Source of the DNA: Parcubacteria group bacterium
Lineage (GTDB): Bacteria > Patescibacteriota > Minisyncoccia > Moranbacterales > UBA2206
DNA length: 64,000 nt
NCBI GenBank assembly: GCA_041674205.1
Contig: JBAYWF010000004.1
Coordinates: 26,721 to 90,720, forward strand
Direction of reading: 5' to 3'
Shown: positions 3,081 through 40,900 of the stretch, one piece after another
Layout of the letters: each line of letters opens with the position of its first letter
How positions within the stretch are numbered: position 1 is the first letter of the stretch
Notes under the pieces: model-generated
The model's input: the letters and a program-made list of their open reading frames with translations, nothing else
Database searches by the model: none
What the model was told of the DNA's origin: nothing
Position numbers and translations under genes: made by a program

Positions 3081-3953
3081 ATGAAAATTGATACTAAAAA
3101 ATTAAATAATGGATTCGAGATGTCGGTTTTTGGAATTGGAACATGGGAAATGGGCGGTCGCACTGAAAGAGATGAAAATTATACAAATGAAGAGAAAGAT
3201 ATTTCGGCTCTGCAAACAGCGATAAAGATGGGCGTCAATCGTTTCGATACCGCCGAGGTGTATGCGCAGGGATATTCAGAAGAAATTTTAGGCAAAGCGA
3301 TAAGAGATTTTGACAGGGGAAAATTATTTATTGTTTCTAAGGTATCTAATCCTAATTTGCAATATGATAATGTAATAAGATCAGCTAAGAATACCCTAAA
3401 AAGATTAGGGACTGATTACTTGGATTTATATTTGATTCATGCGCCTAATCCGGATATTCCAATTGAAGAAACGATGCGCGCGCTTGATTATCTTAAAGAG
3501 AGGGGGTTGATAAAAAATATCGGGGTATGTAATTTTGGAGTTGAAAGCCTTGAAAAGGCGCAATCGGTAACAAAAAATAAAATTGTTTTGAATCAAGTTC
3601 ATTATAATTTAATTTTCAGGGAACCTGTTTTGGCTGGAGTTTTAGAATATTGTCAAAATAATGATGTTTTTCTAGAGGCTTGGAGACCTCTGCAAAAAGG
3701 AGATTTGACGCATTCCGGCATAACAATTTTAGATGAAATATGTGAAAAATATAACAAAACCCAATCGCAAATTGCAATAAACTGGTTGATTTCACAAAAA
3801 AATGTTATCACTCTGACAAAAACGAGCAATCTGGAGCACCTGGAAGATGATCTTGGCGCTTTGGGTTGGGGGATGGAGGAAAATGATGTCAAATTGCTAA
3901 TGGAAAAATTTCCAATCCAGCTTGATAGATCTAATGCTGTTCGATTAGGATAA
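3081..3953 (+). CDS. Aldo/keto reductase family oxidoreductase
   Basis: FGIGTWEMGG, RFDTAEVYAQGYSEEILGKAI and LIHAPNP are characteristic AKR motifs. Confidence 0.8.
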   Translation: MKIDTKKLNNGFEMSVFGIGTWEMGGRTERDENYTNEEKDISALQTAIKMGVNRFDTAEVYAQGYSEEILGKAIRDFDRGKLFIVSKVSNPNLQYDNVIRSAKNTLKRLGTDYLDLYLIHAPNPDIPIEETMRALDYLKERGLIKNIGVCNFGVESLEKAQSVTKNKIVLNQVHYNLIFREPVLAGVLEYCQNNDVFLEAWRPLQKGDLTHSGITILDEICEKYNKTQSQIAINWLISQKNVITLTKTSNLEHLEDDLGALGWGMEENDVKLLMEKFPIQLDRSNAVRLG

Positions 3954-5950: not shown

Positions 5951-6661
5951 ATGGATATTTTAGGAGTTAAAATTGATAATCTTAGCCGCAAGGATATTTC
6001 GGATAAAGTATGGTTTTTTTTACAAGAAGAGAAATTCCATCAAGTGGCTACCGTCAATCCGGAATTCATCTTGCAGGCCCAGGAAGACGGGGGATTTAAA
6101 AATATTTTAAATGGGTGCGATTTGAATGTCGCTGACGGTGTCGGCATCCGGTTCGCGTCCTTGCGCTTCGGCAAATATTTGAAAAGCCGGATGGCGGGGA
6201 TCGACTTGATGTCGGAAATCCTGAGGTTGGCGGATAAAAACAACCTGTCGGTGTTTCTGGGGAGCTATGGCGGCGCGTTGAGTGGCTGGGAGGAAACCCG
6301 CGAGGCTATTTTAAAGGAATATCCCAAATTGAAAATCAGCGGGGCTACCCTGGACAAGGAAGGCGCCGGTTACGGATTGCGAGTTGCGGATCACGAGGTT
6401 GTATTTTTCAATTTCGGCGCGCCTGCTCAAGAAAAATTCCTGCACTCGCTAAAAAACCAAGAAAATAGTAAAATACGGTTAGCGATGGGCGTGGGCGGGA
6501 GCTTCGATTTTTTGACCGGTAAAATAAAAAGGGCGCCTGCTTTTATTAGGAAAACAGGGCTTGAGTGGCTATGGCGGTTTTTGCAGGAGCCGGGTTATCG
6601 CGCCAAAAGGATTTTCCGAGCGGTCATAATTTTCCCAATCAAAGTTTTGTTCAATAAATAA
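5951..6661 (+). CDS. WecB/TagA/CpsF-family glycosyltransferase (N-acetylmannosaminyltransferase-like)
   Basis: VATVNPEF, CDLNVADGVGI and EWLWRFLQEP are WecG/TagA family hallmarks. Confidence 0.75.
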   Translation: MDILGVKIDNLSRKDISDKVWFFLQEEKFHQVATVNPEFILQAQEDGGFKNILNGCDLNVADGVGIRFASLRFGKYLKSRMAGIDLMSEILRLADKNNLSVFLGSYGGALSGWEETREAILKEYPKLKISGATLDKEGAGYGLRVADHEVVFFNFGAPAQEKFLHSLKNQENSKIRLAMGVGGSFDFLTGKIKRAPAFIRKTGLEWLWRFLQEPGYRAKRIFRAVIIFPIKVLFNK

Positions 6662-6679
6662 TTTTTTAATAACAAAAAT

Positions 6680-7090
6680 ATGACCGACAAAGTGAAGTTG
6701 ATCCGCACCATCTATTTGTATCTGGCCGTGGCGGTGAGTCTTATTTTCACCGGCATCGGCGCCGGGACGCTGTTGAATACCGGGTTGAAATATTATCTTT
6801 TCCCGAAAGCGGAAAAGGGCGGATATAGCCAGTGCAACCAACAGCCGCCGGTCTATGCTTTGGATAAAAACAGCTATGCCGGCGTGGCTACGGCGGATCA
6901 AAAAATCCAACTGGAAAATCTCCTGCGCGACTACGACCAATGGAAAACCGCCAATACCGGCGAAGAATGTTATAGCGCTGAGCGCCAATCGAACGTGGTG
7001 GATGCCTTGACGATGATCGTCATAGCCCTGCCGATTTTGTTGGTGCATTGGAGAGTAATCAAAAAAGAAAAGTCGGAAAAAAGCGCATGA
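6680..7090 (+). CDS. Hypothetical membrane protein
   Basis: N- and C-terminal TM segments. No recognisable catalytic motif. Confidence 0.4.
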   Translation: MTDKVKLIRTIYLYLAVAVSLIFTGIGAGTLLNTGLKYYLFPKAEKGGYSQCNQQPPVYALDKNSYAGVATADQKIQLENLLRDYDQWKTANTGEECYSAERQSNVVDALTMIVIALPILLVHWRVIKKEKSEKSA

Positions 7091-7176
7091 TAATGCTGAT
7101 CATAATCGCAGTCCTTATTTTCATCGCCGGAAGCGCGTGGATAATTTTTAGTAAGAATGGGGAATAAATAAAAACT

Positions 7177-8625
7177 ATGCCAGAAAAAAATGTGTTCAAG
7201 GGGACTATCAGTCAGAACTTCGAATCGCTCGACAAGCAGGCTGTCCAAGTGGAAAAGTATGAGAAGGGCGAAGCATTCGATTTTTACGCCCGCTATGGCT
7301 ATTTGAAACTGGCGGAGCGTGAGAAGGAATTTTCCGAGATGATGGGGTCGGCAGACTGCGCTTTGTTCAATGACGGTATGGCCGCGATCGATACCGCGAT
7401 CGAAGCCGAGGGATTGAAAAACGGAGACGTGGTCATATGTGCCAAGGAAATGTATGAACAATCCAATGCGATAGTGGATACGCTGAAAAACAGAGGGGTC
7501 GAGGTGGTCGCGGTGGATCCGGGAAATATGGAAGAAATCGCGGAAGTCGTGGAAATGAAAAAGCCCAGGTTGATTTTCCTTGAAAGTGTCGCGAATTCCC
7601 AAGATATGCAAGTTTGCGACATAAAGCGGTTGATGTCTATCTCCGAGAGTGCCAATCAGGATTACCGGGAAAATCTCACTTCGGAAAAATTGATTGAAAA
7701 ATATTTTTCCATCAAGCGCTATCCGCTTGCAGGCGGCGCAAACGATCAACAGGGCCCTTCGGTTGGAGAAACCCATGATTCCAAGGCGGGATCCGAACTG
7801 GGAAATTTAAAGAAAATGTTGTCCAAAGAAATCAGTGAATTCGAAGAGGGCAATAACCCGTTCGTTTTCCGCAAAGCCTTGCGGGAATTTGAACGACAAA
7901 CAGGTTGTGACAGGGAAGAATCGATCAGGGAAATTTCCAAAGCGGTGCGATACGTCCGAAAAAATAGCCGGGAAAAATTATCCGTCATCATCGACAATAC
8001 CTTGCCATCGCCGGTCCTGTATAATCCGTTGGAAGACGCGAAAGGCAGTCCTGTCGAATTGGTCATCGTGGAAAGCGCGACAAAACACTACCAAGTAGGC
8101 CGGGACAAGATCACTATGGGTATCGCGTATTCCGATAGCGCGGAGAAAATAAAGGAGATAAAAAAAATCCGGGCTATGATCGGAAGCTATTTGCAGCCGA
8201 TCGCGGAAAAAGAGATACCCAAGGACTTGATAGGAATTATGCCGGAAATCATGAAACGCCACGCTGAAAACGCCCTTGAGTTGGCGAAAATGCTGAGCGG
8301 AAGCGGGAAAGTGGGCGAGGTCGAACATCCGAACCTACCTGAACATGCCCAGAGCGAGTTAGCCAAAGAAATCGCGCCGGAAGGCCTTGTCACGCTCTTC
8401 AATATCAAGATAACCGATGCGCCCCGATTCGTGAAAACCTTGAAAGAAATCGCCGGTGACAAAATCGGCCTGGGAGGAAGTTTCGGACATCCGAAGACCT
8501 GGGTACTGAGCCTGGGGGAATATTGGCCGGAAAGGATCCGGATAGCCGCCGGTAGAGAAACGGAAAAAGAGTTCAAGGAAGTTTTGGATATTTTCAAAAA
8601 AGCCCTGGAAACATACGAAACATAA
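7177..8625 (+). CDS. Cys/Met-metabolism PLP-dependent enzyme family protein (cystathionine gamma-synthase/lyase-like), divergent, with a large internal insertion
   Basis: N-terminal half (YARYGYLKLAEREKEFSEMMGSADCALFNDGMAAIDTAIEA...VVAVDPGNMEEIAEVV...LIFLESVANSQDMQVCDI) aligns by eye with the Cys/Met PLP fold. VIVESATKHY supplies the S-x-T-K PLP-lysine motif. About 150 aa of acidic/lysine-rich sequence separates the two halves. Confidence 0.55.
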   Translation: MPEKNVFKGTISQNFESLDKQAVQVEKYEKGEAFDFYARYGYLKLAEREKEFSEMMGSADCALFNDGMAAIDTAIEAEGLKNGDVVICAKEMYEQSNAIVDTLKNRGVEVVAVDPGNMEEIAEVVEMKKPRLIFLESVANSQDMQVCDIKRLMSISESANQDYRENLTSEKLIEKYFSIKRYPLAGGANDQQGPSVGETHDSKAGSELGNLKKMLSKEISEFEEGNNPFVFRKALREFERQTGCDREESIREISKAVRYVRKNSREKLSVIIDNTLPSPVLYNPLEDAKGSPVELVIVESATKHYQVGRDKITMGIAYSDSAEKIKEIKKIRAMIGSYLQPIAEKEIPKDLIGIMPEIMKRHAENALELAKMLSGSGKVGEVEHPNLPEHAQSELAKEIAPEGLVTLFNIKITDAPRFVKTLKEIAGDKIGLGGSFGHPKTWVLSLGEYWPERIRIAAGRETEKEFKEVLDIFKKALETYET

Positions 8626-8646
8626 GCTGATTAGTAATAAAAAAAT

Positions 8647-9504
8647 ATGACTGTCAAAAACTATCCCATCAAGAATGATACGGATTGGTGGCCTAAATTA
8701 GCAATAAAATGGAAAGGGATAACCGATCCAGTGAGGCCATCAGAGGATAACTTGGGAGTTTATGATAAACTCCTCAGAACTTCCCTAAAGGGTATAAAAA
8801 AGCCGAGAATTTTAGTGTTGGGATCAACCCCTGAAATGCGCGATTTGGCTCACAGATATGATGCTGAAGTTACCATCGTCGATATCAACATTGAAATGAT
8901 GCTGGCGATGTCGGAATTAATGGAGCATAAAAGCGATATCGAAAAAGAAATCTGGGTAAAAAGCGGCTGGGACAACGTCCCATTGGCTGGAAATTATTTT
9001 GATGCGATACTAGGTGACGCGGTCAGCAGCAATATGCCTTGGGAAAAATCGAAATTATGGATGGCGCATATGGCTGAACTGCTAAAAAAGGGCGGAGTTT
9101 TCATCGAAAGAACGTACATCCATACTGGCAATAAAAATACCGAGGTTCTGATCGATAAGCTTTTTAAGCGGATATCTGCCGAGGGGATGGTCAAAAAACA
9201 AGACCTATCCATACTTCAAATATTATTGCTGGATCTGAGTTATGATAATGAAAAAAAGATCGTAATAAATACCAACAATAAAATAAACATCTCGAGATTC
9301 AAAGACGCTTATAGGGATGAATTCATCGATGGATTATATCGGAAATTCAACAAACTCTTTCCGGATAATCCGCCTAAGATGTGGCGCGCGGTTACGGAAG
9401 ATGAACAGGACATCATATTCAGCAAAGATTTTAAAATTATCGATAAAATGCCCTCCAAATCATTTGTTAAAAATTTCATTTTTTACAAATTAATCAAAAA
9501 ATAG
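8647..9504 (+). CDS. Methyltransferase-fold paralog 1 (putative class I SAM-dependent methyltransferase, divergent motif I)
   Basis: Family signature W...RPSxxDxxxY, LVLGSTPEMRDL (beta1-loop), acidic VTIVDIN (beta2), FDAILGD, LLKKGG (motif III-like). Confidence 0.5.
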   Translation: MTVKNYPIKNDTDWWPKLAIKWKGITDPVRPSEDNLGVYDKLLRTSLKGIKKPRILVLGSTPEMRDLAHRYDAEVTIVDINIEMMLAMSELMEHKSDIEKEIWVKSGWDNVPLAGNYFDAILGDAVSSNMPWEKSKLWMAHMAELLKKGGVFIERTYIHTGNKNTEVLIDKLFKRISAEGMVKKQDLSILQILLLDLSYDNEKKIVINTNNKINISRFKDAYRDEFIDGLYRKFNKLFPDNPPKMWRAVTEDEQDIIFSKDFKIIDKMPSKSFVKNFIFYKLIKK

Positions 9505-9505
9505 G

Positions 9506-10405
9506 ATGAAGATCACGGAAAAATTCAAAAATCATCAGAAAAAATGGGCCAGGATTTCCAAGCACTGGGGGAATTTTACCGAGCCAAGCCGGCCAAGCAG
9601 AGGGGATATCGCCAATTACAATTCCTTGCTTAGTGCGGCGCTGAAAAACCGGAAAAACCCCGACATCTTATTGCTCGGTTCCACGCCGGAAATCCGCGAC
9701 GTGCTTTTCAAATTTTCCATGACCCATGGCGCGAAAGTGATCTGTGCCGATATGACGCGTGAGATGTTTGACGCTATGTCGGCACTCACTGATTTTAAAA
9801 ACGCCAAGGAAAAATTCGTATCCGCGAACTGGGTCGATATGCGGTTTGATAAAAAATTCGACGTCATAATCGGGGATTTCGTAAACGGAAATATCGGGGA
9901 CAGACATAAGCACGCTTATTTTTCCAATCTGGTGTCACTTTTGAAAGAGGACGGCTCATTCATCACCCGCGATTGCGTATTTACAGACGAATGCAAGATA
10001 GGAAGCGTCGAGCAGGCGTTCAGGTCTTTCTTGAACCAGGCGCGCGATGAGGAATACCCGATGAAAAAAGCGGCCAATATGGCGGCAAACACGCTTATCT
10101 GGGCAAGCCGGGCATTGAATGATGAGAGGAAAGGGTCGCTTTCGTATTTTTGGCCGGAACTTGAAAAATTCGGAGAGAAATTGGATTCGGCCCGGAGCGA
10201 GGACGATATCCTGCTCAAGATAATGTACCAGCGGATGATGAGAGCTTGGACGCCGTACAAATCGAAATATTGGACGTATAACACCTTTGAAGAAAATAAG
10301 CGGATGCTGGAAGGATATTTCATAATCAAGAAAACGCTTTTTGCCGACGACTACGGAAAAATCATCACGAAAGCTTCCCCGATGTATTTATTAGGTAAGC
10401 AATAA
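9506..10405 (+). CDS. Methyltransferase-fold paralog 2
   Basis: RPSRGDIANY, LLLGSTPEIRDV, VICADM, FDVIIGD, LLKEDG. Starts 2 nt after paralog 1. Confidence 0.5.
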   Translation: MKITEKFKNHQKKWARISKHWGNFTEPSRPSRGDIANYNSLLSAALKNRKNPDILLLGSTPEIRDVLFKFSMTHGAKVICADMTREMFDAMSALTDFKNAKEKFVSANWVDMRFDKKFDVIIGDFVNGNIGDRHKHAYFSNLVSLLKEDGSFITRDCVFTDECKIGSVEQAFRSFLNQARDEEYPMKKAANMAANTLIWASRALNDERKGSLSYFWPELEKFGEKLDSARSEDDILLKIMYQRMMRAWTPYKSKYWTYNTFEENKRMLEGYFIIKKTLFADDYGKIITKASPMYLLGKQ

Positions 10406-10424
10406 CAAACTACGGAAAAAAACT

Positions 10425-11291
10425 ATGGAAAAGAAAGTTGTTGACTTATGGAAAAATTGGTGGAAAGTATGGACTAAAATCGGACCGCCTTGGCGTCCAT
10501 CTAAAAAGGATATCGGTTTTTGGGAAAAGCGGATAGAGGAGCTTTCAAAGAATAAAAAATTAAAAGTTTTATTGCTTGGATCGACTCCTGAAATCAGAGA
10601 TATGTTCGCGAGACATGACATCCCACTGACCCTATTGGAAGCGAATGAATCTATGTACGAAGCTATGGGCAAGATGAGAAAGGTACATAGCGCTCCTAGC
10701 GATGAAAAGCTGGTTATCGGCAATTGGCTTGAAGCTGACAGGATATTTAAGGAAAATAGATTCGATATCGTAATAAGCGATTTGCCGCATTGCAATATTG
10801 CCTACAAGGACTGGCCGAAATTTTTTACAAATATTTTTAATGTCCTAAAACCAGGGGGACAATTTTTGCTTGCTACGGTAACTTATGGTTACCCAGAAAG
10901 GCAGACGATTGAAGAAATGTTGGAAAAATACAGTAAAAACAAAAAATACTTCGCTGATTTTAAAAATAGGATTTGGGAACTATATCAAGTTCTAAATGAA
11001 CCCGGGATTCTTGATAAAAAAGAATGGCGATTCAACCTTTACAAGCTAAGGGAGCTTGTAAAGAAAAAAGCCAAGAAAAAATTTTCACTGGACGAGATAG
11101 ATAGAAACCTTGTATTCATCCAGGGTGATTTAACCGGGGAACTGCTCAATGATGTCGTTGAAGTCGGGCCACCCCTGGAAGAGCAACTCATCATGCAGTC
11201 GAAATGGTTTTATTTAGATAGTTTGTATTTGGTGCCAGATCATCCGGTTTTTAAAATAAGAAGGACGATGATCCTTAAAGTAAAAAAATAA
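10425..11291 (+). CDS. Methyltransferase-fold paralog 3
   Basis: WRPSKKDIGFW, LLLGSTPEIRDM, FDIVISD, VLKPGGQFLLATV (classic motif III). Confidence 0.55.
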   Translation: MEKKVVDLWKNWWKVWTKIGPPWRPSKKDIGFWEKRIEELSKNKKLKVLLLGSTPEIRDMFARHDIPLTLLEANESMYEAMGKMRKVHSAPSDEKLVIGNWLEADRIFKENRFDIVISDLPHCNIAYKDWPKFFTNIFNVLKPGGQFLLATVTYGYPERQTIEEMLEKYSKNKKYFADFKNRIWELYQVLNEPGILDKKEWRFNLYKLRELVKKKAKKKFSLDEIDRNLVFIQGDLTGELLNDVVEVGPPLEEQLIMQSKWFYLDSLYLVPDHPVFKIRRTMILKVKK

Positions 11292-11376
11292 ACAATGGAG
11301 ATAAGCCATTCATTCGCATAATTATGATATTATTAAGCAGCCACTAATTTATTTTATTAAATATTGAAAAGATGAT

Positions 11377-12261
11377 ATGGAAAGAGTAAATGACAGAAAG
11401 GCTTGGGATAATATCTCAAAAATGTACTCAAAGCTGATAATTCCTAATCGACCTAGTTTAGGAGATATTGAAAATTACGGGCGCATAATGTCGCTAGTAT
11501 TAGGCAATAAAAAAAATCCAAAAATAATGATAATGGGCTCTACGCCAGAATTGAGATCTGCTGCTTACAGATTTAGGATTATGAAGGGGGCAAAGGTTTT
11601 TTGCGTAGATATTAGCGAAAATATGTATGAAGCAATGAATAATTTTTGCGTATCAAAGCAGTCAAATGATGAAAAGTATTTAGAAAGATCGTGGCTAAAA
11701 ACTGGTTTCAAAAAAGATTACTTTGATTTAATTTTGGGAGATGAAGTTATTTGCAATATCCCATTTGAATCACAAGACGAATTATTTAAAGAAATTTCAA
11801 GAATCCTGAAAAAAAATGGAGCTTGGGTTACAAGGCATAATTTTTCTATTGGAAAAGACGAGGTAACAAACCCAAAAGAAATAATAGAATACCTAGCTAT
11901 TAACATATCTAATGGGAATATAAACTTTGATTTTGCTGTAAATTTATTATTCGTGGATTTTTTTTACTACGCGGGATGGCATAATCCATTAGATAATTCT
12001 ATGGAGAGCCATTTGAAAGTAATGAAAAAAGAATATTTAATTCACTTCAAGAAACATCCATTAAAAAAGATCGTGAAGGAATTGATAGATTTATATGATA
12101 TTTTTTGGGTAAGTTTATCCGGGAATCATAACTGGTCTATTGTTTCAAGAAAAGATAGTGAAATAAGATTAAAGAAATTTTTTAAAATCGGAAAAAAATT
12201 ATATTCCAATGATTACCCAACTGCTAAAAATTCACCGATCTATCTGTTAAGTAAAAAATAA
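11377..12261 (+). CDS. Methyltransferase-fold paralog 4
   Basis: NRPSLGDIENY, MIMGSTPELRS, VFCVDISENM, FDLILGD, ILKKNG. Confidence 0.5.
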   Translation: MERVNDRKAWDNISKMYSKLIIPNRPSLGDIENYGRIMSLVLGNKKNPKIMIMGSTPELRSAAYRFRIMKGAKVFCVDISENMYEAMNNFCVSKQSNDEKYLERSWLKTGFKKDYFDLILGDEVICNIPFESQDELFKEISRILKKNGAWVTRHNFSIGKDEVTNPKEIIEYLAINISNGNINFDFAVNLLFVDFFYYAGWHNPLDNSMESHLKVMKKEYLIHFKKHPLKKIVKELIDLYDIFWVSLSGNHNWSIVSRKDSEIRLKKFFKIGKKLYSNDYPTAKNSPIYLLSKK

Positions 12262-12262
12262 T

Positions 12263-13117
12263 ATGGAACCAAAAAAACCAAAGGTTTATAACCAAGCCTG
12301 GGCCAGCTATTATGATATGTGGGGCAAGACGGAATCGCCGTGGCGGCCGAACAAGAACGACATCGCTTTTTGTGGGAAGATGATCAAGGATATTCTCAAA
12401 AAAGAAAAGAGCCCGAAAGCCTTGGTGTTCGGTTCGACTCCGGAAATCCGCGATCTTTTGGCCAAGTATGGGATAGAAACCACCCTTGTCGATGCCAATC
12501 CGACGATGAAAAAAGCGATGGACAAATTAATGAAGCTCAAAAATCCCAAAGAGAAATTCATAATCGACAACTGGCTAAGCGTCAGATTGCCGAAGGAACA
12601 TTTCGATTTGGTTTTCTCCGATGGGCCGCTGTGCAATATCGCCCTTAGTACCTGGGGAAAGTTCATCGATAACGTGAATGGGTCGCTTAAAAAAGAAGGT
12701 TTGTTTTATCTGGCCGCTTGGGTTTACCAAGTCCGGAATCCTTGGGGATTCGATGGATTGATAGCGAAATATAAGAAAGACCCGGAATATTTCAAAGATT
12801 TCAAAAATAGGATATGGTCGTTGCACCGCCTCTACCAGGAACCCGGACTATACAACCGGAAGAAAAAAGAATTCCATTTCGACAAAGTCATAAAAAGATT
12901 GGAAAGATTTGTTAAAAAGGGCATCATCAGCGAATCAGATCTTGGAAATATCCGCTGGGTGAATGATGATTTGGGCTCATACGTGGAAATCGCTTTTGAC
13001 AATATCAGGGAAAATGACGATTTTTTGAGGCGATTTTACACGATCAAGGAAATATATACCGACAAATCCCATCCATTGATGGCTTTTCGAAGGGATTATA
13101 TGCTGAAAAAGAAATAA
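12263..13117 (+). CDS. Methyltransferase-fold paralog 5
   Basis: WRPNKNDIAF, LVFGSTPEIRDL, TTLVDANPTM, FDLVFSD, LKKEG. Confidence 0.5.
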   Translation: MEPKKPKVYNQAWASYYDMWGKTESPWRPNKNDIAFCGKMIKDILKKEKSPKALVFGSTPEIRDLLAKYGIETTLVDANPTMKKAMDKLMKLKNPKEKFIIDNWLSVRLPKEHFDLVFSDGPLCNIALSTWGKFIDNVNGSLKKEGLFYLAAWVYQVRNPWGFDGLIAKYKKDPEYFKDFKNRIWSLHRLYQEPGLYNRKKKEFHFDKVIKRLERFVKKGIISESDLGNIRWVNDDLGSYVEIAFDNIRENDDFLRRFYTIKEIYTDKSHPLMAFRRDYMLKKK

Positions 13118-13191
13118 TTCCTAATCCATATTCGAAAGTTAGCTGATTTTTTTGGTTTTGTAAAGCCAAAAAATAGTATATAATAAGGGGA

Positions 13192-14064
13192 TTGATGCAA
13201 AAAACGAAATCAGTAAAAGTTAAAAATATGTCAAAAAAACCAGTATTAAACAAGGAAGGTTGGACCCGTGTTTCAGAAGAATGGGGGCGGGTTATGTCAC
13301 CTGATCGTCCTTCACGCTATGAAATTGAGATATATGAGGATTACATCCGAAAGATAGTCCAAAAATCCAAGAAGAAAATCAAGGCTTTGATTTTAGGCGC
13401 GACGCCGGAACTCAGGGATCTATTGGCTACGTATGATATCGACGTCACTATTGTCGACATAAATTCGGATATGATCAAGGCTATGGATCAGCTTCTGGAA
13501 TATTCGGATGGGAAAGAAAAAACAGTGGTTTCAAATTGGCTTGAAATTCCGCTGGAATCGGATTCTTTCGATGTCGTTCTTTGTGACCACGGAGTGTGCC
13601 ATATCCCGTTTGAAAAGTGGGAAGCGTTTTTCGCTGAGCAGGCGAGACTCTTGAAAAAAGGCGGCCACCTGATAAAGAACGTCGTCACAGTTGAAAAAAA
13701 CGAGACCCTTGGCGCGGATGATATGATAGCCGCCTTTAAAAATAATATTTTTACCCGGGATGACAAAAATTATTATTATTGGTCGTGCATTATCGGGATG
13801 GATGATTTTGAAGGCAAGCAACACCTTAAAAACTTCCAAGATTTAGATGATCAGCTGAAGAAGTTCCTAAAAGGCGGAGTTATCACAAAAAAACAATTTG
13901 ATTTCCTAAAGACTTTTTGGCATGGATTCAAGGCTACGTTTCCACCGAAAGAGGTCGTTGACGATATCATCAGCAGGAGTTTTATTATAAAATCAATCAG
14001 AAGCAGCGCGGCAAATAGGGCTTTGACATGCTATAAGATTTATTTCGGTCAGGCAAAGAAGTAA
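13192..14064 (+). CDS. Methyltransferase-fold paralog 6
   Basis: DRPSRYEIEIY, LILGATPELRDL, VTIVDINSDM, FDVVLCD, LLKKGG. Confidence 0.5.
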   Translation: MMQKTKSVKVKNMSKKPVLNKEGWTRVSEEWGRVMSPDRPSRYEIEIYEDYIRKIVQKSKKKIKALILGATPELRDLLATYDIDVTIVDINSDMIKAMDQLLEYSDGKEKTVVSNWLEIPLESDSFDVVLCDHGVCHIPFEKWEAFFAEQARLLKKGGHLIKNVVTVEKNETLGADDMIAAFKNNIFTRDDKNYYYWSCIIGMDDFEGKQHLKNFQDLDDQLKKFLKGGVITKKQFDFLKTFWHGFKATFPPKEVVDDIISRSFIIKSIRSSAANRALTCYKIYFGQAKK

Positions 14065-14125
14065 CGCCCCTATTTTTATAATATGAAAAATTGAAAAAGA
14101 CATAATTTTTTTAAAGACCAGCGTT

Positions 14126-14467
14126 ATGCGGAAAATTTCAGGCGTCATTATCAAGGGCAAACAAAAAGGGCGGACATTGGGATTTCCGACCGCTAATCTT
14201 GTTTTGGATGACCCGGCAATCGGAAGCGGGGTTTATGTCGGCAAAGCCCGTTTTGACGGCGGAGAATATGTCGCCGCCATTTTCGTGCCGGAAAAACGCG
14301 ATGTTCTGGAGGCGCACATTTTGGATTTTGAAGGCGACTTATACGGGAAAGAAATCAGCGTCGAGGTCGGCCAAAAGATCCGCGAGGTGGTCCGTTTCGA
14401 GAGCGAGAAGGAATTGATCAGCCAAGTACTGAAAGACCTGTTCCTGATCAGAAAAGCTAAACCGTAA
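14126..14467 (+). CDS. Riboflavin kinase (monofunctional, RibF C-terminal-domain type)
   Basis: GRTLGFPTANL and the EAHILDF(E)GDLYG pattern of the flavokinase domain. Confidence 0.75.
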   Translation: MRKISGVIIKGKQKGRTLGFPTANLVLDDPAIGSGVYVGKARFDGGEYVAAIFVPEKRDVLEAHILDFEGDLYGKEISVEVGQKIREVVRFESEKELISQVLKDLFLIRKAKP

Positions 14468-14478
14468 TTTCAAAAGAT

Positions 14479-15063
14479 ATGTTCACCGGCATCATAAAAA
14501 AATTATCCGTTATCGAAAAGGTCTCCCAAAAAAATGGCAGCCTTTTCGTATCCGTAAAAATCCCGGCTGGCTGGAAAGTTTGGAAGGGGGAGAGTATCGC
14601 GATCGATGGCGTATGCTCGACGGTCAAAAATTTGACCAAAAAAGATTTTATCGTGGAATATATGCCGGAAACCATCCATAAAACTACCGTCGGAGATTTT
14701 ATCAAAGATAGGCCGGTGAACTTGGAAAAAAGCCTCAAATTGAACGATCTCCTGGATGGCCATCTGGTGCAAGGGCATATCGATACGACCGGACAAGTGA
14801 AGGAAATCAAACAAATCCAAGAATCCAAAGTCGTCAAGATAAAAATCCCAACCAGTTTTATGCGCTTGGTCGCCGATAAAGGTTCGGTGACGGTGAACGG
14901 CACGAGCCTCACGGTCGTTTCCACCGGCAAAGATTGGTTCAGCGTGTCGCTAGTCGGCTACACCTTGAACAACACCAACCTCGGGACGCTCGAAGTGGGG
15001 GATAGGGTAAACATTGAAACCGATGTTTTGGCCAAATATATCGATAAATTGTTAAGGAAATAA
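14479..15063 (+). CDS. Riboflavin synthase alpha subunit
   Basis: MFTGII start and duplicated lumazine-binding halves (GESIAIDGVCSTV / GSVTVNGTSLTV). Confidence 0.85.
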   Translation: MFTGIIKKLSVIEKVSQKNGSLFVSVKIPAGWKVWKGESIAIDGVCSTVKNLTKKDFIVEYMPETIHKTTVGDFIKDRPVNLEKSLKLNDLLDGHLVQGHIDTTGQVKEIKQIQESKVVKIKIPTSFMRLVADKGSVTVNGTSLTVVSTGKDWFSVSLVGYTLNNTNLGTLEVGDRVNIETDVLAKYIDKLLRK

Positions 15064-15064
15064 T

Positions 15065-15523
15065 ATGCTAAGAAAACAATCAAGTGAAGTCGGGAAAATC
15101 GACGGGGAGAAATTAAAAATCGCGATCGTGGTTTCGAAATTCAACCTGGATATCACCGGCAAAATGTTCGCGGGCGCAGTTGAAACTTTACAGGATAGCG
15201 GGGTGATGGAAAAAAACATCCGGACTGTCTGGGTGCCGGGAGCGTTCGAAATCCCTTTGGCTTGCCAGAAATTAGCCCAAACAAAAAAGTATGACGGGCT
15301 GGTCGCGCTGGGTTGCGTCATCAAGGGCGATACCGACCATTACCATTACGTATCCAGCGAATCGATCCGCGGCGTGATGGATGTGATGCTTAAAACCGAT
15401 TTGCCGATCGGATTAGGCATAATCACGACCGCCAATTTGAAACAAGCCCAGGAGCGCTCCAATGACCGGCACAACAAAGGTGCCGAAGCGGCCCAAGCCG
15501 TTTTGGAGGTGATAAATAATTAA
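15065..15523 (+). CDS. ribH: 6,7-dimethyl-8-ribityllumazine synthase
   Basis: KIAIVVSKFN, WVPGAFEIP and GCVIKGDTDHY motifs. Confidence 0.85.
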   Translation: MLRKQSSEVGKIDGEKLKIAIVVSKFNLDITGKMFAGAVETLQDSGVMEKNIRTVWVPGAFEIPLACQKLAQTKKYDGLVALGCVIKGDTDHYHYVSSESIRGVMDVMLKTDLPIGLGIITTANLKQAQERSNDRHNKGAEAAQAVLEVINN

Positions 15524-15539
15524 ATCATATATAAAATTT

Positions 15540-17075
15540 ATGGATAAAGTCAGAGTCAGATTCGCGCCGTCGCCGACCGGTTATTTGCATATCGGCGGCT
15601 TGCGGAGCGCCCTATATAACTATCTGTTCGCCAAGAAAAACGGCGGGACTTTCATCTTGAAAATAGAAGACACTGACCGCAAAAGATTCGTCGAGGGCGC
15701 GGTGGAAAGCCTTATCAGCTCTTTGGATTGGGCGGGTTTGGATCGGGATGAGGGCGTGTTTATGAAAAACCAGGTTTCGGGTTCGGAATCACAAAAAACA
15801 TTCGAGTCCGAGAATTACCCGGGGGTTATGGAAATAGGCGAGTTTGGACCATACATACAATCGGAAAGACTGAATCTGTACAAAAAATATGCCGAGGAAT
15901 TGGTCGCCAAGGACAAGGCTTATTATTGTTTTTGCGAACAAGATCGGCTGGACAAGGTTAAGGAAGAAAAGATCGCAAACAAACAGGCTCCGATGTATGA
16001 CCGCTATTGTTTGAAAAACGTCACTCCGGAAGAAGTCAATGGGAAATTGAAATCGAATTGCGCCTACACGATCAGGCTTAAAGTTCCTGCTGATGAAATC
16101 ATCGAATTTGAAGATTTGGTCCGCGGAAAAGTTTCCATCAATTCCAATACCATCGATGACCAGGTCTTGATGAAATCCGACGGTTTCCCAACCTACCACT
16201 TGGCCAGCGTGATAGATGATCATCTGATGTGTACGACGCATGTCATCCGCGGCGAAGAATGGCTGCCTAGCACGCCGAAACATATCTTGCTCTATCGGGC
16301 GTTCGGATGGGAAATCCCAGAGTTCGCGCATCTGCCTCTTCTGCTCAGCACGGACAAGAAAAAACTTTCCAAACGTATGGGGGATGTGGCGGTTGAGGAT
16401 TACATAAAAAACGGCTATCTGAAAGAGGCGATAATAAATTTTGTAGCTCTTTTGGGATGGCATCCGGGCGAAGGAGAAACTCAGGAAATATATTCGCTGG
16501 ACGAATTGGAAAAAATATTCGATATTAAGCGGGTGCACAAGGCCGGCGCGGTTTTTGATTTGCAAAAGCTTGATTGGCTTAACGCGCAATATATCAAAAA
16601 AATGTCCGTGGATGAATTGTACGGACAGTCCTTGAAATTTTTCGCGCAGAAAGATTTTTATAATTCAGCTCCAAAGGAAATGAAAACCGAGGAATATCTG
16701 AAAAAAGTTTTGACTGTGGAGCAAGAGCGGCTCGTCAGATTGTCAGACGTAGGAGAAAATGATAAATTCTTTTTTACTAATATTGATTACGATAAGGCCA
16801 TGTTGCGCTGGAAAGATATGTCCGACGAAGCCTTGAAAGAATCATTGGAAAAATCCAAAAAAGTCCTGATGGGAATCGATGAACAAGGATGGGAACTGAA
16901 AAATATCGAAGAAAAACTTTTTGCGGCGGCAGGGGACAAGAAGGGCGATTTGCTTTGGCCGCTCCGAGTAGCCCTTTCCGGCGCGCAAAAATCCCCTTCG
17001 CCGATGGAATTGGCCTGGGTATTAGGCAAGCAAGAAAGCCTGGATAGACTGGAAAGCGCCATAAATAAGATTTGA
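15540..17075 (+). CDS. gltX: Glutamyl-tRNA synthetase
   Basis: RFAPSPTGYLHIGGLRSAL (HIGH) and KLSKRMG (KMSKS) class-I motifs. Length fits GluRS. Confidence 0.9.
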   Translation: MDKVRVRFAPSPTGYLHIGGLRSALYNYLFAKKNGGTFILKIEDTDRKRFVEGAVESLISSLDWAGLDRDEGVFMKNQVSGSESQKTFESENYPGVMEIGEFGPYIQSERLNLYKKYAEELVAKDKAYYCFCEQDRLDKVKEEKIANKQAPMYDRYCLKNVTPEEVNGKLKSNCAYTIRLKVPADEIIEFEDLVRGKVSINSNTIDDQVLMKSDGFPTYHLASVIDDHLMCTTHVIRGEEWLPSTPKHILLYRAFGWEIPEFAHLPLLLSTDKKKLSKRMGDVAVEDYIKNGYLKEAIINFVALLGWHPGEGETQEIYSLDELEKIFDIKRVHKAGAVFDLQKLDWLNAQYIKKMSVDELYGQSLKFFAQKDFYNSAPKEMKTEEYLKKVLTVEQERLVRLSDVGENDKFFFTNIDYDKAMLRWKDMSDEALKESLEKSKKVLMGIDEQGWELKNIEEKLFAAAGDKKGDLLWPLRVALSGAQKSPSPMELAWVLGKQESLDRLESAINKI

Positions 17076-17097
17076 ATTTAAAAATAGGCGTTTTTAT

Positions 17098-17106
17098 GTT
17101 ATAATG
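17098..17106 (+). promoter_or_regulatory. Extended -10 element (TGnTATAAT) upstream of the M23 peptidase gene
   Basis: tgttataat lies 41 nt upstream of the ATG at 17147. Confidence 0.35.
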
Positions 17107-17146
17107 CGGTATGATTGGATTAGAAACATAGGATGACGTCTGCTGT

Positions 17147-18379
17147 ATGCTAAAAAAACAAAGTGTGAAAAAAAATATATCCAAAAGGATCACTGCGCTA
17201 ATGGCAATCTCCAGCGCATTGTTTTTCCCGTCCATCCATAGGGTTTATGGCACTGCTACCGACTGCGACTCGGCAAACGACAGGGTTGAATGTTTGGAAA
17301 AGGAGCGCAAGGATACCCAAAAGCTAATCGATATAAAAAATAAGACTCAGCTGACGATCCAAAGCCAGCTATCGCTTATCGACGCGCAACAACAAAAAAA
17401 CCAAGTTGAATTGCTGAAAACCAAGGAAAAAGCGCAGAGTCTCGCGCAACAAGTGGCTAACTTGGAACGGGAAATCAAAGACAAAGAAGATCTGTTGAAA
17501 TATCAACAAGTGGTCTTGAGCAAGCTGATCCAATCATACTATGAATACAACCAGGGTGGGCTTTTGAATATCGTACTGATTAATCAGGATTTCTCCGATA
17601 TTTTTAGCCAATCGGACCACATTGAACAATCCAGCAGCCGCGTAAGCGAGGTTCTGAAAACTATCCGTGAAACGAAAGAAAGCCTACAAGAGGAATATGA
17701 TGACCTGAACGTCAAGAAACGGGAGAGTGAAGATATGAAAAGCGAATTGGAAGATAGGAATTTGAACTTGCAATACAGTGAAAACCAGAAGCAGAATCTG
17801 CTCGGACAGACGCAGGCTGAAATCGCCAAATATAAAGAGCTTCTGGCAAAAATCGATAATGAAATCAACGACTTGGAAGAGGGCCTTTCAAATTCGGTCA
17901 ATATGGCCGACTTGCCGCCGGACAAAGATGGCTACTTTACTTGGCCGGTCAATCCGCATATATTCACCCAGGGTTACGGCAAAACAAGCTTCGCTAAGAC
18001 ATCCGGCATATATAAGAATAATTTCCACAATGGCGTGGATTTCGGAATAAAATACAGTAGCGTCTTTGCTGCCAGAGGCGGCAAAGTGGTCGGCTCCGGC
18101 GATAATGGTAAATATGCCTATGGTAAATGGCTTGCGATTGACCATGGAGACGGGTTAGTGACATTATACGGCCATTTGAGCGATAAGGCTGTTTCTAAAG
18201 GTGGGAAAGTCAAGGAAGGGCAAAAAATTGGCGTCAGCGGAAATACCGGGAATTCAACCGGGCCGCATCTGCATTTTTCAGTTTTCTCTTCGGGAACTTT
18301 CAAGACCGTCGAGTCTTCCTATGTCAACGGCCTGATGATCCCGACCGGAGCGCCGGTCAATCCGAAAAAATATCTGTAA
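17147..18379 (+). CDS. M23-family peptidoglycan metalloendopeptidase with N-terminal signal/TM and long coiled-coil (EnvC-like architecture)
   Basis: C-terminal HNGVDFG...GHLS...GNTGNSTGPHLHF zinc-binding M23 motifs. Residues about 40-240 are Q/E/K-rich heptad-like. Confidence 0.8.
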   Translation: MLKKQSVKKNISKRITALMAISSALFFPSIHRVYGTATDCDSANDRVECLEKERKDTQKLIDIKNKTQLTIQSQLSLIDAQQQKNQVELLKTKEKAQSLAQQVANLEREIKDKEDLLKYQQVVLSKLIQSYYEYNQGGLLNIVLINQDFSDIFSQSDHIEQSSSRVSEVLKTIRETKESLQEEYDDLNVKKRESEDMKSELEDRNLNLQYSENQKQNLLGQTQAEIAKYKELLAKIDNEINDLEEGLSNSVNMADLPPDKDGYFTWPVNPHIFTQGYGKTSFAKTSGIYKNNFHNGVDFGIKYSSVFAARGGKVVGSGDNGKYAYGKWLAIDHGDGLVTLYGHLSDKAVSKGGKVKEGQKIGVSGNTGNSTGPHLHFSVFSSGTFKTVESSYVNGLMIPTGAPVNPKKYL

Positions 18380-28191: not shown

Positions 28192-29736
28192 TCAGGCCGC
28201 GGATATTGCCGCACGTATGGCTCTTATTTCTCCCGTCTTCAGATCCAGTTCGACCTCATCCCCGTCCTGCAGAATCCGCGTAGCGTTTTTCGTACCGATG
28301 ATGGCCGGCAAGCCGAGTTCGCGTGAAACGATCGCCGCGTGGCACGCCAAGCCGCCCTCATCGGTGATTATCGCGATGGCTTTTTTCATAAGCGGCACAA
28401 ACTCGATCCTGGTCATGCTGGTCACCAAAATCCTGCCCGCTTCAAAATCACTTTTGTCCGGACGCAGGATTATGCTCACAATCCCTCTGATTTTTTCTTG
28501 GCCGCCCCGGCTGGCTACCACGCCCATCAATCCGCTTGCAGATTCGATCTTGCTTGCCAACCCGAATAAATCCCTGGCCTCATCGCCGAAAAAAATGTTC
28601 CGCTTGCCATGCTCGAATGCCAAGAATACGCCCGACTCCCTTTTTGCGATAATCAACGGATCGACTCGCACGTCCTTTTCCAGCAAATCAAACAATTCTT
28701 CCATAAAATACGCGGTGCAGGTGTGATAATCGATTTTTTTGCGTTCCGTGATTTCCCGCAGCATGGAATAGATGTAATAGAATTGCTTCATCATTCCCGA
28801 TTTCCTTTGATCAAACCACAAAATTGCCTTTTGGGAAAATTCAATATCCATCAAATCAACCTCTCTTAGGGCATAGCGCTTTTTAAGTTCATTTTTACTA
28901 GCATGGATATTTGAGAAATTATCTTCTATTTTAGCCAGTTCATTTTCCAGGTCGGCTTCGTTTTTTATTTTTAATTCATTTTTAACTTCATCCCTCAATG
29001 AATATCCATCTACACGCGTCGCCTCATAAAAATTCGTTTTAATCCAGAAAAAATCCCGTATATATTTATCGACTAGCGGTTGGACATTTTTATCTTCCCA
29101 CGCTTTAGCGAAATCATCATTCCCAGAACTATGGATTTTCCGGTTAACCGTCAGACATATTTCAAAAAAATTCTTTCGTTCCTGATTGAAAACCGCCATC
29201 TCATCCGGATGCGCCAACACGCTCACCGCTTCCCGCGCATCTTCATAGCTGATGCCATGGCGTTTTTGGAATCGCGGCACCACTTCCCAATTGACTACCT
29301 CCGCTTTGTCTTCGCCGGTAGCGGCACATTTCCACCACTCATAGGCCAGCTCGTTTATTTTCCTAAAATATCCAGCGAATTCAGCGTCTGGAATTCCCCC
29401 TTCCGCCCTTTCCAGATATTCCAACCCCAAGCGGTCGATTTCTAGAGCCAATTTTTGTTGGGCTTGGATTTTGTTCCGCATACCCTCCGGGTTTTCCAAA
29501 TAATCTTCGTAAAACTTTTTGGAAACCTTTTTGATATCGTCCCGTGAAATCAATTGGTAGAAAACGTCCGCCCCTTGGCCGAAATAGCAATGCACGTGAT
29601 CATAATCGACTCCGGTGATTTCCGCCGAATCCGAATAGGCCCGGAAAACCCAATCGGCCGCGTTGAAAGCCGCCCGGGCGCTTTGCACGTCGATTTCATT
29701 TTCCGCCAGATATTTTTTCAATTCTTGCGCGTCCAT
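28192..29736 (-). CDS. Phosphotransferase paralog 1: variable N-terminal domain (~400 aa) + C-terminal PEP-utilising-enzyme phosphohistidine swivel domain
   Basis: C-terminus GVVASRGG...[48 protein letters not shown] matches the PEP-utilisers mobile domain. The conserved His codon falls at about 28339-28341. No ATP-grasp or PEP-binding barrel. Confidence 0.7.
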
Positions 29737-29737
29737 A

Positions 29738-31159: not shown

Positions 31160-31171
31160 ATGTTTTTTTTA

Positions 31172-32393: not shown

Positions 32394-32399
32394 ATGGTT

Positions 32400-33899: not shown

Positions 33900-33917
33900 A
33901 TGATTGTAATTAAAAGA

Positions 33918-34868: not shown

Positions 34869-34902
34869 AAATTTATTCTTAAATATTTATGTTTTTATTA
34901 TA

Positions 34903-36381: not shown

Positions 36382-36394
36382 ATTGAATATGATA

Positions 36395-37882: not shown

Positions 37883-37896
37883 AATTTATAAAATCT

Positions 37897-38991: not shown

Positions 38992-39005
38992 ATATTTATT
39001 TACAG

Positions 39006-39830: not shown

Positions 39831-39834
39831 AAAT

Positions 39835-40838: not shown

Positions 40839-40857
40839 ATCTATATATAACTAATTA

Positions 40858-40900
40858 TTTCGCGCCCACCTCCGCCAGATCCCCATTCTGCAAAAAATCG
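40858..40900 (-). repeat. Remnant of the conserved 3-prime terminus of a swivel-domain gene (...LQNGDLAEVGAK*), immediately downstream of the GGCT-like gene
   Basis: cgcgcccacctccgccagatccccattctgcaaaaaatcgc parallels the 3-prime ends of paralogs 4/5 (cgcatccacctccaccaaatccccgtcgtgcaaaatttgcg). Confidence 0.5.

Follow-up and report, generated by a model that had tools for sequence, protein, structure and literature searches.

The window analysed here, a stretch of 64,000 nucleotides from a Parcubacteria group bacterium (contig JBAYWF010000004.1), carries six intact open reading frames of one methyltransferase-fold family in tandem on the + strand, with a divergent PLP enzyme at their head, and a seventh copy within a phosphotransferase island. 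The seven copies, designated M1 to M7, were found at the coordinates given by the original prediction. The features of the two regions are as follows.

7177-8625, + strand: divergent Cys/Met-metabolism PLP enzyme, 482 aa, at the array head (Pfam PF01053, E 1e-38 in two stretches)
8647-9504, + strand: M1, methyltransferase-fold paralog, 285 aa, subfamily cluster 11; sister-genome ortholog 87% identical
9506-10405, + strand: M2, paralog, 299 aa, cluster 5; begins 1 nt past the M1 stop; sister-genome ortholog 92% identical
10425-11291, + strand: M3, paralog, 288 aa, cluster 35; GC3 0.41; missing in the sister genome
11377-12261, + strand: M4, paralog, 294 aa, cluster 1; missing in the sister genome
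12263-13117, + strand: M5, paralog, 284 aa, cluster 12; begins 1 nt past the M4 stop; sister-genome ortholog 82% identical
13124-13176, + strand: remnant of paralog X, the 3' end of a deleted eighth paralog; aligns to the last ~50 nt of sister gene L128:9092-9949
13192-14064, + strand: M6, paralog, cluster 4; 290 aa from TTG 13192, 289 aa from ATG 13195, 278 aa from ATG 13228
28192-29736, 29738-31159, 32400-33899, 34903-36381, 36395-37882 and 37897-38991, - strand: six C-terminal swivel (PEP-utilizers) paralogs
39838-40025, - strand: truncated swivel-domain gene remnant (3' end, ~60 codons) directly past the M7 stop; 70% identical to the C-terminal 60 aa of the 34903-36381 product
40017-40838, - strand: M7, seventh paralog, 273 aa, cluster 8, within the phosphotransferase island
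40904-41446, - strand: GGCT/AIG2-fold (gamma-glutamyl cyclotransferase) protein directly upstream of M7; fold confirmed structurally
42999-43946, - strand: stand-alone ATP-grasp (PPDK_N) subunit of a split PEP-synthase/rifampin-phosphotransferase-like dikinase (Pfam PF01326, E 3e-99; PDB 8a8e, E 1e-75, and 5fbs, E 4e-65)

For M6, translation is more likely to start at ATG 13195, which lies behind an AAGGGG ribosome-binding site, or at ATG 13228, the NCBI call, than at TTG 13192. The tight tandem spacing described earlier was real, although the exact range of the spacers is 1-85 nt and not 2-80 nt. An assembly repeat artefact was excluded, because an identical sequence was assembled independently from SRR6484325, the array of the sister genome is collinear, and the copies are too different to collapse or expand as repeats. 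A scan for promoters and terminators over positions 6500-17500 gave a signal no better than that of shuffled sequence.

The global pairwise identity of the seven copies is 23-36%, and the blastp E-values between them, from 1e-11 to 1e-52, are far past chance. The signature motifs proposed for them were also real, and P.RP, G.TPE.R, W, FD and LK..G are invariant in all seven. Among 97 family members, G57, T59, P60, R63 and W104 are invariant, and D77, E61, E97, D115, D120 and Y36 are each conserved in at least 95%. D77 (98% in the family; D or E in all seven window copies) is the predicted acidic residue that closes strand 2 and, in class I methyltransferases, binds the ribose hydroxyls. The adenosine-binding positions are retained despite the divergence: both the N/D-W pair after strand 3 and the acidic end of strand 2, through which canonical methyltransferases grip the adenosine of SAM, are kept. 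Behind strand 4, where the catalytic residue usually lies, there is a conserved Asp. The identity among the seven copies is 53% in the loop, 31% in the core and 11.7% in the cap, a helical insertion some 100 residues long that separates strands 5 and 6 and has diverged almost to randomness.

The methyltransferase fold that had been read from the sequence was recovered by structure prediction and by profile searches. The AlphaFold2 model of M6 (pLDDT 93.7) shows a Rossmann-like alpha/beta fold with a seven-stranded sheet and the cap at residues 155-250. Profile matches in the PDB include 3dtn (E 1e-9) and phosphoethanolamine N-methyltransferases (PMT; E about 1e-8), and the Pfam families matched are Methyltransf_11/25. 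Against the gathering threshold of 21.2 bits for Methyltransf_11 (PF08241), M6 scored 50.1, M4 39.2, M5 28.1, M3 27.3, M1 21.2 and M7 17.0, and M2 gave no match. The Pfam matches start at profile positions 11-53, beyond the start of the domain model. The canonical motif I after strand 1 (E/DxGxGxG) is missing, and G[SA]TPE[LIMF]R is found instead in all 102 sequences inspected; this loop keeps only the first Gly of motif I and has no acidic residue preceding it. That GSTPE stands in the place of GxGxG agrees with the 3dtn profile alignment, which sets LGsTPEl on LGAGTGL. We predict that the products of the seven genes are cytoplasmic enzymes and belong to an uncharacterised subfamily within the class I (Rossmann-like) SAM-methyltransferase fold. 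Since the glycine-rich loop that cradles the methionine part of SAM is replaced, the predicted use of SAM derives from the fold together with the retained adenosine-binding positions, and we regard the whole explanation to which it belongs as evenly balanced.

Several specific assignments were tried and rejected. The best score against the UbiE/MenG quinone methyltransferase model (NCBIfam TIGR01934) was 27.3 bits, for M6, with a cut-off of 158 bits. For spermidine/spermine synthases, the best Pfam Spermine_synth score was 19.6 bits (M2), under the cut-off of 22.9; the loop is G[SA]TPE, and an N-terminal beta-hairpin domain is lacking, as the M6 model has no strand before residue 52. The PADLOC matches to mad2 of the MADS defence system (E 2e-11 to 6e-5) were confined to the methyltransferase-domain segment, profile positions 309-426 of 492, and no mads partner genes were seen near the array; the defence assignment was rejected because such matches are generic to the domain.

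The nearest structures are small-molecule methyltransferases of the Methyltransf_11/25 type (3dtn MM_2633, 1ve3 PH0226 and 1vl5 BH2331), most of them without an assigned function. The window family differs from these in G[SA]TPE.R for GxGxG, in its own N-terminal W...P.RPS...Y segment and in the cap. For the PMT enzymes of Plasmodium and nematodes (3uj6, 4r6w and 4iv8), the profile alignment extends through the core and on to the cap (E 6e-9 to 1e-6), and the PMT active-site segment aligns to the FD..(x)5 segment behind strand 4; however, motif I is unlike and the identity is only about 15%. PMT catalysis relies on His132 and Tyr19, and a further set of residues binds the phosphate. At the position aligned to His132, five window copies have Asn, M6 alone has His, and M7 is ambiguous.

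Related loci were collected with a degenerate DNA pattern for the (L/M)G(S/A)TPExR motif, which gave 120 matches; about half were chance and were removed by HMM. At 50% identity the family forms about 730 clusters, the majority of them from Patescibacteria and DPANN-type archaea, and no Pfam or NCBIfam model is specific to it. Contig stretches carry 1-12 copies, and 37 of 60 show a single one. Outside the CPR (Clostridia, Desulfosporosinus and Anaerolineae), the contexts hold hydrolases, peptidases, radical SAM and TIR proteins and no defined pathway. The family does not appear to be phage-borne, since a motif scan of IMG/VR gave no real member. A literature search for the motif, for methyltransferase paralog arrays in CPR and for CPR rifampin phosphotransferases returned nothing specific. 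Fusion proteins also occur: P0096 (1704 aa, a continuous ORF on contig L129) has six family domains, some with degenerate loops (GFNSEIRD, GVDPVLRD), and P0097 and P0098 have two each. The six domains of P0096 were compared with M1-M6 and were not collinear with them. These fusions and the 1-nt spacers of M1/M2 and M4/M5 hint at physical cooperation and count against independent action of the copies.

The duplicates had been described as old or rapidly diversifying; their old age held, and rapid diversification did not. The seven copies fall into seven distinct subfamily clusters which recur in the arrays of other genomes, and the duplications are therefore ancient, as judged from these relationships. 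For six of the seven, between 5 and 63 foreign homologs are nearer than the nearest paralog in the window; the exception is M3, whose nearest relative is M5. The four copies common to the window and the sister genome are under purifying selection, with dN/dS of 0.04-0.26. The gene content of the array changes quickly. The sister genome, 88% identical in nucleotides, is without M3 and M4 and has two other copies (X and Y) instead, and the window retains the 3' remnant of X and the deletion junction for Y. The slot between the PLP gene and a flavokinase gene holds one copy in L109 and six in both the window and the sister genome, in different sets; six copies follow the PLP gene in L127 and twelve in L125. 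M5 and its sister ortholog differ with a dS of 2.0 against about 0.3 in the flanks. M4, a compositional outlier (GC 0.300, GC3 0.286; window mean GC3 0.518, sd 0.087) with nearest foreign homologs about 50% identical, was probably acquired horizontally. The claim that these are not housekeeping genes is borne out by the variable copy number and by the different copies in close relatives, and the quick gain and loss suggests that the enzymes form a kit for modifying different small molecules.

The most consistent partner of the family, absent from the original prediction, is the Cys/Met-family PLP enzyme at the array head. It retains the SATK lysine motif and has an insertion of about 100 aa at roughly residues 160-262, and among PDB entries it is most similar to methionine gamma-lyase, cystathionine gamma-lyase and Ala/Glu racemase (E 1e-17 to 1e-11). 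The PLP gene occurs on 17 of 60 family contigs, DPANN archaea included, and 15 of 18 PLP genes directly adjoin a family gene; most of the 60 stretches are without it inside the 8 kb examined. In a reverse search from PLP homologs, a family gene was adjacent in three of four long contigs. Other neighbours are alpha/beta hydrolases (about 11 loci in two recurrent families, and three single cases), M19 dipeptidases (L130 and L052), an M20 peptidase (L052), C26/GATase proteins (L127 and L088) and GCS2 (L127). These neighbours, like the GGCT-fold protein beside M7, would suit the processing of conjugates. No glutathione S-transferase was found.

M7 physically links the family to the swivel phosphotransferases, and this link, which had been pointed out, is real and conserved: the swivel family is a recurrent neighbour in other genomes, and the cluster-8 member of L127 stands inside its main array. 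HAD and histidine-phosphatase-like genes are interleaved with the six swivel paralogs (28192-38991, - strand). The ATP-grasp subunit matches residues 8-316 of rifampin phosphotransferase (RPH; E 4e-65), and the swivel paralogs match its C-terminal ~170 residues (E 6e-16), a part that ends in the His swivel domain. In contrast to RPH and PEP synthase, the ATP-grasp part is a separate 315-aa protein and the swivel domains belong to six different proteins, each with an unknown N-domain. No match of the island to the rifampin-binding domain of RPH was demonstrated.

Our preferred reading, which we hold with about even confidence, is that the array provides SAM-dependent small-molecule methyltransferases with differing substrates, coupled to the PLP lyase. 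Every copy would bind SAM and methylate a different small nucleophile, with the cap setting the specificity, and the copies would be independent enzymes, each individually dispensable, rather than one pathway or complex. The array may be co-transcribed and work together with the PLP enzyme, which would most likely release or consume a shared amino-acid-derived moiety; we would guess first at a C-S or gamma-lyase reaction that cleaves Cys/Hcy-type conjugates, after which the group set free is capped with a methyl. Such a scheme would be like that of the mammalian thiomethyl shunt or of GliJ-GliI-GtmA in gliotoxin metabolism. The gliotoxin pathway uses the gamma-glutamyl cyclotransferase GliK, the M19 dipeptidase GliJ, the PLP C-S lyase GliI and the thiol methyltransferase GtmA/TmtA. 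The comparison is an analogy and not a claim of membership, as the family has no specific sequence relationship to GtmA/TmtA past the common fold. The peptidase and gamma-glutamyl-type neighbours are sporadic here, unlike in such thiol processing, each occurring in one or two loci only, and in another genome (L134) a homolog of the GGCT-fold protein lies apart from all family members; because of this, the context supports the thiol or conjugate idea weakly. Together with the RPH-like dikinase paralogs and various hydrolases, the array may make up an accessory kit, exchanged horizontally, with which symbiotic bacteria and archaea of small genome size modify metabolites or xenobiotics.

Joint action of the paralogs, as a hetero-oligomer or an ordered series that places several methyls on one substrate (a glycan, lipid head group, protein or polyamine-like molecule), is unlikely, though it would explain the single polypeptides with two or six family domains, the degenerate loops in P0096, as in complexes with non-catalytic subunits, and the 1-nt spacing of two gene pairs; glycosyltransferase genes upstream of the array in both the window and L125 also fit it. 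However, the copies vary from 1 to 12 and the subfamily sets differ even between genomes 88% identical in DNA, P0096 does not follow the order of M1-M6, and the caps have no detectable mutual similarity, which would be unexpected for copies that bind one substrate. It is more doubtful still that the family performs other adenosyl-cofactor chemistry, such as aminopropyl transfer from dcSAM, 3-amino-3-carboxypropyl transfer or SAM cleavage, with the PLP enzyme handling the sulfur by-product. In spermidine synthases, a loop Asp excludes the SAM carboxylate, and the invariant acidic residue in the G[SA]TPE loop that replaces GxGxG parallels it; M2 matches Spermine_synth weakly (E 7e-4), spermidine and thermospermine synthases in the PDB match weakly as well (E 0.01-0.1), and the constant PLP partner is in keeping with such chemistry.

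The replaced motif I and the several Pfam scores under gathering thresholds could also mean inactive ligand-binding proteins, sensors or sponges of SAM/SAH or metabolites that retain the fold alone. This is improbable given the (near-)invariance across the family of G57, T59, P60, E61, R63, D77, E97, W104, D115 and D120, the strong purifying selection and the Asp at the catalytic position. The least probable reading, to which we give hardly any weight, is that of housekeeping RNA or protein methyltransferases, or generic UbiE/MenG enzymes, in tandem by happenstance. JGI labels several homologs 'ubiquinone/menaquinone biosynthesis C-methylase UbiE' and weak NCBIfam matches point the same way, but the scores are far under the cut-offs (27 against 158 bits for TIGR01934), presence differs between close relatives, the family is mostly confined to CPR and DPANN, and one would not expect housekeeping genes in seven to twelve copies per genome.

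A wider reading, rather a speculation, is that an undescribed supermodule unites the G[SA]TPE family and the Cys/Met-type PLP lyase dedicated to it with the split RPH-like dikinases and the hydrolases and peptidases. It would be traded horizontally, be restricted to ultra-small episymbionts (CPR bacteria and DPANN archaea) and process changing host-derived or antibiotic molecules. If true, this would be a modular processing or resistance locus that uncaps, methylates or phosphorylates small molecules and is tuned in each lineage by gain and loss of whole genes.

A pangenome of Patescibacteria counted 89 paralogs among 118,635 genes (PMC12455944). Since these genomes are described as poor in paralogs, seven family genes, and up to twelve in relatives, are a notable investment. 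For the turnover of single genes in a reduced genome, the array offers a clean natural case. As far as could be found, the cofactor loop G[SA]TPE is unreported for characterised methyltransferases, and the enzymology would show how a SAM-type pocket manages when the glycine-rich loop is missing. The substrates of the family, once known, could show what uncultured symbionts take from their hosts or defend against in them.

The six methyltransferase-fold paralogs M1 to M6 and the seventh copy, M7, were each found as an ORF exactly at the position predicted. A gene for a divergent Cys/Met-family PLP enzyme precedes M1.

7177-8625, +, divergent Cys/Met-family PLP enzyme, recurrent partner
8647-9504, +, M1
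9506-10405, +, M2
10425-11291, +, M3
11377-12261, +, M4
12263-13117, +, M5
13192-14064, +, M6
40017-40838, -, M7

The spacers within the M1-M6 array are 1-85 nt. For M6, the ATG at 13195, preceded by the ribosome-binding site AAGGGG, or the ATG at 13228 (NCBI call) is a more likely start than 13192. Global pairwise identity among M1-M7 is 23-36% (blastp E values 1e-11 to 1e-52), and the motifs quoted in the original prediction are genuine, with P.RP, G.TPE.R, W, FD and LK..G invariant in all seven copies. The concern that the array might be an assembly artefact was ruled out by an identical array in an independent Logan assembly of SRR6484325 and a collinear one in the sister genome GCA_030679995.1 (about 88% nucleotide identity). 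The remaining window genes are those of an ordinary Patescibacteria chromosome, including PriA, NifS, CTP synthase, ribosomal protein L9, RtcB and a surface-glycan cluster.

The Pfam matches of the copies were generic and mostly weak (Methyltransf_11/25/31), and started at profile positions 11-53, beyond the beginning of the domain models. An AlphaFold2 model of M6, made with 97 family sequences, had a pLDDT of 93.7 and a pTM of 0.90, and showed the seven-strand sheet of class I methyltransferases, with a mostly helical insertion, designated the cap, between strands 5 and 6.

Elements of the AlphaFold2 model of M6 (residues)
Strand 1, 52-56
Strand 2, 72-77
Strand 3, 98-101
Strand 4, 114-120
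Strand 5, 142-153
Cap, 155-250
Strand 6, 252-258
Strand 7, 269-276

In the PDB, the family profile matched 3dtn (MM_2633) with an E value of 1e-9, and phosphoethanolamine N-methyltransferases with one of about 1e-8. Aligned to 3dtn, LGsTPEl falls on LGAGTGL, and the VD pairs that close strand 2 coincide. The earlier structural reading, a methyltransferase fold with GSTPE in the place of GxGxG, was therefore right. The motif G[SA]TPE.R replaces the glycine-rich loop in all 102 sequences inspected. Across 97 members, G57, T59, P60, R63 and W104 are invariant, and conservation reaches 93% or more at P25, P28, Y36, E61, D77, E97, D115, D120 and G146. Canonical enzymes hold the adenosine via an acidic residue ending strand 2 and a polar-aromatic pair after strand 3. 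The family retains both positions and has remodelled the region that would usually touch the methionine moiety, where E61 and R63 may replace the usual contacts. The proteins have the fold of the class I superfamily, but not its motif I. Membership in the phosphoethanolamine N-methyltransferases is not supported, as identity is about 15% and motif I differs. UbiE/MenG membership was rejected, no NCBIfam model approaching its cut-off for the window copies, and profile tests rejected the spermidine synthase and MADS mad2 families.

Compared pairwise, the seven copies averaged an identity of 53% in the strand 1-loop-helix segment, 31% in strands 2-5, 25% in strands 6-7 and 11.7% in the cap. Since the loop is the most conserved part and the cap the least, and small-molecule methyltransferases have their substrate lid inserted between strands 5 and 6, the copies would share a common cofactor chemistry and diverge at the substrate-binding part.

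The duplicates had been described as either old or rapidly diversifying, and the first alternative held, while recent, fast diversification did not. When 321 family sequences were clustered, the seven window copies fell into seven separate clusters, and clusters 1, 4, 5, 8, 12 and 35 reappeared in arrays of other genomes (L125, L127, L123). For six of the seven copies, 5 to 63 foreign homologs outscored every in-window paralog; the exception was M3, whose closest relative is M5. Because of these scores and the recurrence of the clusters, the window copies represent subfamilies of ancient origin, each keeping a conserved role of its own. The four copies shared with the sister genome are under purifying selection, as judged by dN/dS (M1 0.26, M2 0.10, M5 0.04 and M6 0.08; neighbouring genes 0.13-0.17), and the cap evolved faster than the core in M1 and M2. 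Two or more copies were present in 23 of 60 independent contig stretches, and in GCA_028715115.1 twelve copies stand in a row behind the PLP gene. Family domains also occur fused in single polypeptides, two in P0097 and P0098 and six in P0096 (1704 aa), which is one uninterrupted ORF (L129:1125-6239; ENA ERZ27256924 contig k141_1111282). Several of its six tandem domains have degenerate loops (GLAPELRE, GFNSEIRD, GVDPVLRD, GSTPNLRD). Its host is likely a DPANN-type archaeon, because genes for a beta-CASP RNase, ribose-1,5-bisphosphate isomerase, form III RuBisCO and AMP phosphorylase adjoin it.

The gene order of the sister genome is PLP, M1, M2, M5, X, M6, Y, flavokinase; M3 and M4 are absent, and the paralogs X and Y are extra. 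The M5-M6 spacer of the window retains about 50 nt from the 3' end of X, and its M6-flavokinase spacer is the sister's spacer joined to the final bases of Y inside an A-rich microhomology. All copies terminate in KK-stop (AAAAAATAA/G), which makes microhomology available and may drive the deletions. In composition, M4 departs strongly from the window (GC3 0.286 vs 0.518 ± 0.087) and M3 also has a low value (0.41), in agreement with horizontal gain. M5 has a dS of 2.0 where the flanks have about 0.3, and such an excess suggests allelic replacement. In a further relative, L109, one copy alone separates the PLP gene from the flavokinase gene. Individual copies appear to be dispensable and exchanged, because the copy sets of the sister and L109 differ, remnants of X and Y persist, M3 and M4 are outliers and the dS of M5 is high.

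Other genes of the window also depart from its mean GC3 of 0.52, namely an aldo-keto reductase gene (3081-3950, +; 0.30) and, within 34903-39830 (-), three paralogs of the PEP-utilizers-domain (swivel) proteins with an adjoining 274-aa gene (0.34-0.42). These values below the mean suggest that these accessory genes were also acquired horizontally. Directly after the M7 stop lies a remnant of a truncated swivel gene, its last ~60 codons (39838-40025, -), which share 70% identity with the C-terminal end of the protein encoded at 34903-36381. A second remnant, of 19 codons (42918-42974, -), follows the ATP-grasp gene and lies at the annotated N-terminus of a P-loop-like ORF (42354-42974). Both point to truncation of earlier swivel paralogs by deletions or insertions.

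Clustering of neighbour genes identified two recurrent partners. The PLP gene was found in 17 of 60 family contigs, archaeal ones included, and 15 of 18 PLP genes directly adjoin a family gene; in the reverse search from PLP homologs, a family gene was next door in three of four independent long contigs. The window enzyme, whose nearest matches are methionine and cystathionine gamma-lyases, has retained the SATK lysine motif, and its Pfam match is interrupted by an insertion of ~100 aa (roughly residues 160-262). In archaea, a homolog adjoining a family gene (L040; at least 405 aa, the contig end cutting the gene) appears canonical over the region of this insertion. The second partner, the swivel proteins, occurred in 11 of 60 family contigs. 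In the window they belong to an island (28192-43946, -) that looks like a split rifampin-phosphotransferase/PEP-synthase-type dikinase, in which several interleaved genes had no Pfam match.

42999-43946, -, stand-alone ATP-grasp PPDK_N protein
within 28192-43946, -, six swivel paralogs (N-domain of ~300-420 aa without known assignment, C-terminal His swivel domain)
31803-32393, -, interleaved HAD hydrolase
33918-34868 and 39006-39830, -, two interleaved proteins whose RH(A/S) motifs resemble those of histidine phosphatases

In L127 the genes run PLP, six methyltransferase-sized genes unbroken (five HMM-confirmed), swivel, PPDK_N, swivel, an unannotated 284-aa gene and flavokinase. Since these genes are contiguous there, the two separate regions of the window form one block in L127, and the predicted link between the two families was borne out. 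Rarer neighbours were probable alpha/beta hydrolases (two recurrent families covering about 11 loci, and three single cases), an M19 dipeptidase (L130, L052), an M20 peptidase (L052), C26/GATase (L127, L088) and GCS2 (L127). At L132:18976-19374, on a Buchananbacteria-like contig and ~9 kb from a PLP-methyltransferase pair, a bAvd gene is followed by a reverse transcriptase gene (RVT_1), probably a diversity-generating retroelement that has no connection with the family.

When 1.84 billion cluster representatives were searched exhaustively with a profile, 729 proteins matched at E <= 1e-30, and the number rose to 1731 for E <= 1e-10; homologs named by their sources belong to Patescibacteria lineages and one Woesearchaeota archaeon. 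A degenerate DNA motif pattern, searched against one genome per GTDB species, gave at least 120 loci, and among the matches listed the HMM confirmed 58 of 120.

Contigs by record title, among the matches listed
Patescibacteria, about 30
DPANN-type archaea, 11
'Uncultured Gammaproteobacteria', 7
Clostridia / Desulfosporosinus, 5
Myxococcota, 2
Anaerolineaceae, 1

The seven 'uncultured Gammaproteobacteria' MAG contigs (L009, L051, L076, L080, L087, L093, L102) include one complete chromosome of 1.23 Mb. Their labels look doubtful, because several share neighbour genes with CPR loci, labelled Kerfeldbacteria/Patescibacteria (L061, L085). The motif scan of IMG/VR found no family member, and no entry specific to the family was found in Pfam, NCBIfam or the literature.

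The analyses establish the fold, the motif, the conservation pattern, the divergent cap, the separation into ancient subfamilies, the purifying selection, the turnover at gene level, and the linkage to the PLP enzyme and dikinase paralogs. We give about even chances to the family being a set of SAM-dependent small-molecule methyltransferases. With SAM as cofactor, the proteins would methylate small molecules, every subfamily a substrate of its own, and the PLP enzyme would supply or remove a common amino-acid-derived moiety. Our more specific guess, in which C-S or gamma-lyase cleavage of Cys/Hcy-type conjugates would be followed by methyl capping, has a rather low probability; it agrees with the enzyme classes nearby, yet those neighbours are sporadic. 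Such a lyase with capping would be analogous to GliK/GliJ/GliI/GtmA of gliotoxin metabolism, and also to the thiomethyl shunt concept (bioRxiv 10.1101/2023.04.28.538718).

Alternatively, the copies may form a cooperative complex or serially methylate one substrate, as the multi-domain fusions and 1-nt spacers would favour, although gene turnover speaks against it. Less probably, they perform non-methyl chemistry on an adenosyl cofactor, or are pseudoenzymes or housekeeping methyltransferases. The subfamily is real, conserved and uncharacterised, and both its cofactor loop and its genomic habit are unusual, in genomes that are otherwise paralog-poor (PMC12455944). Its value lies in the substrates to be learnt, in the conserved association with the PLP and dikinase genes, and in the turnover of one gene at a time.
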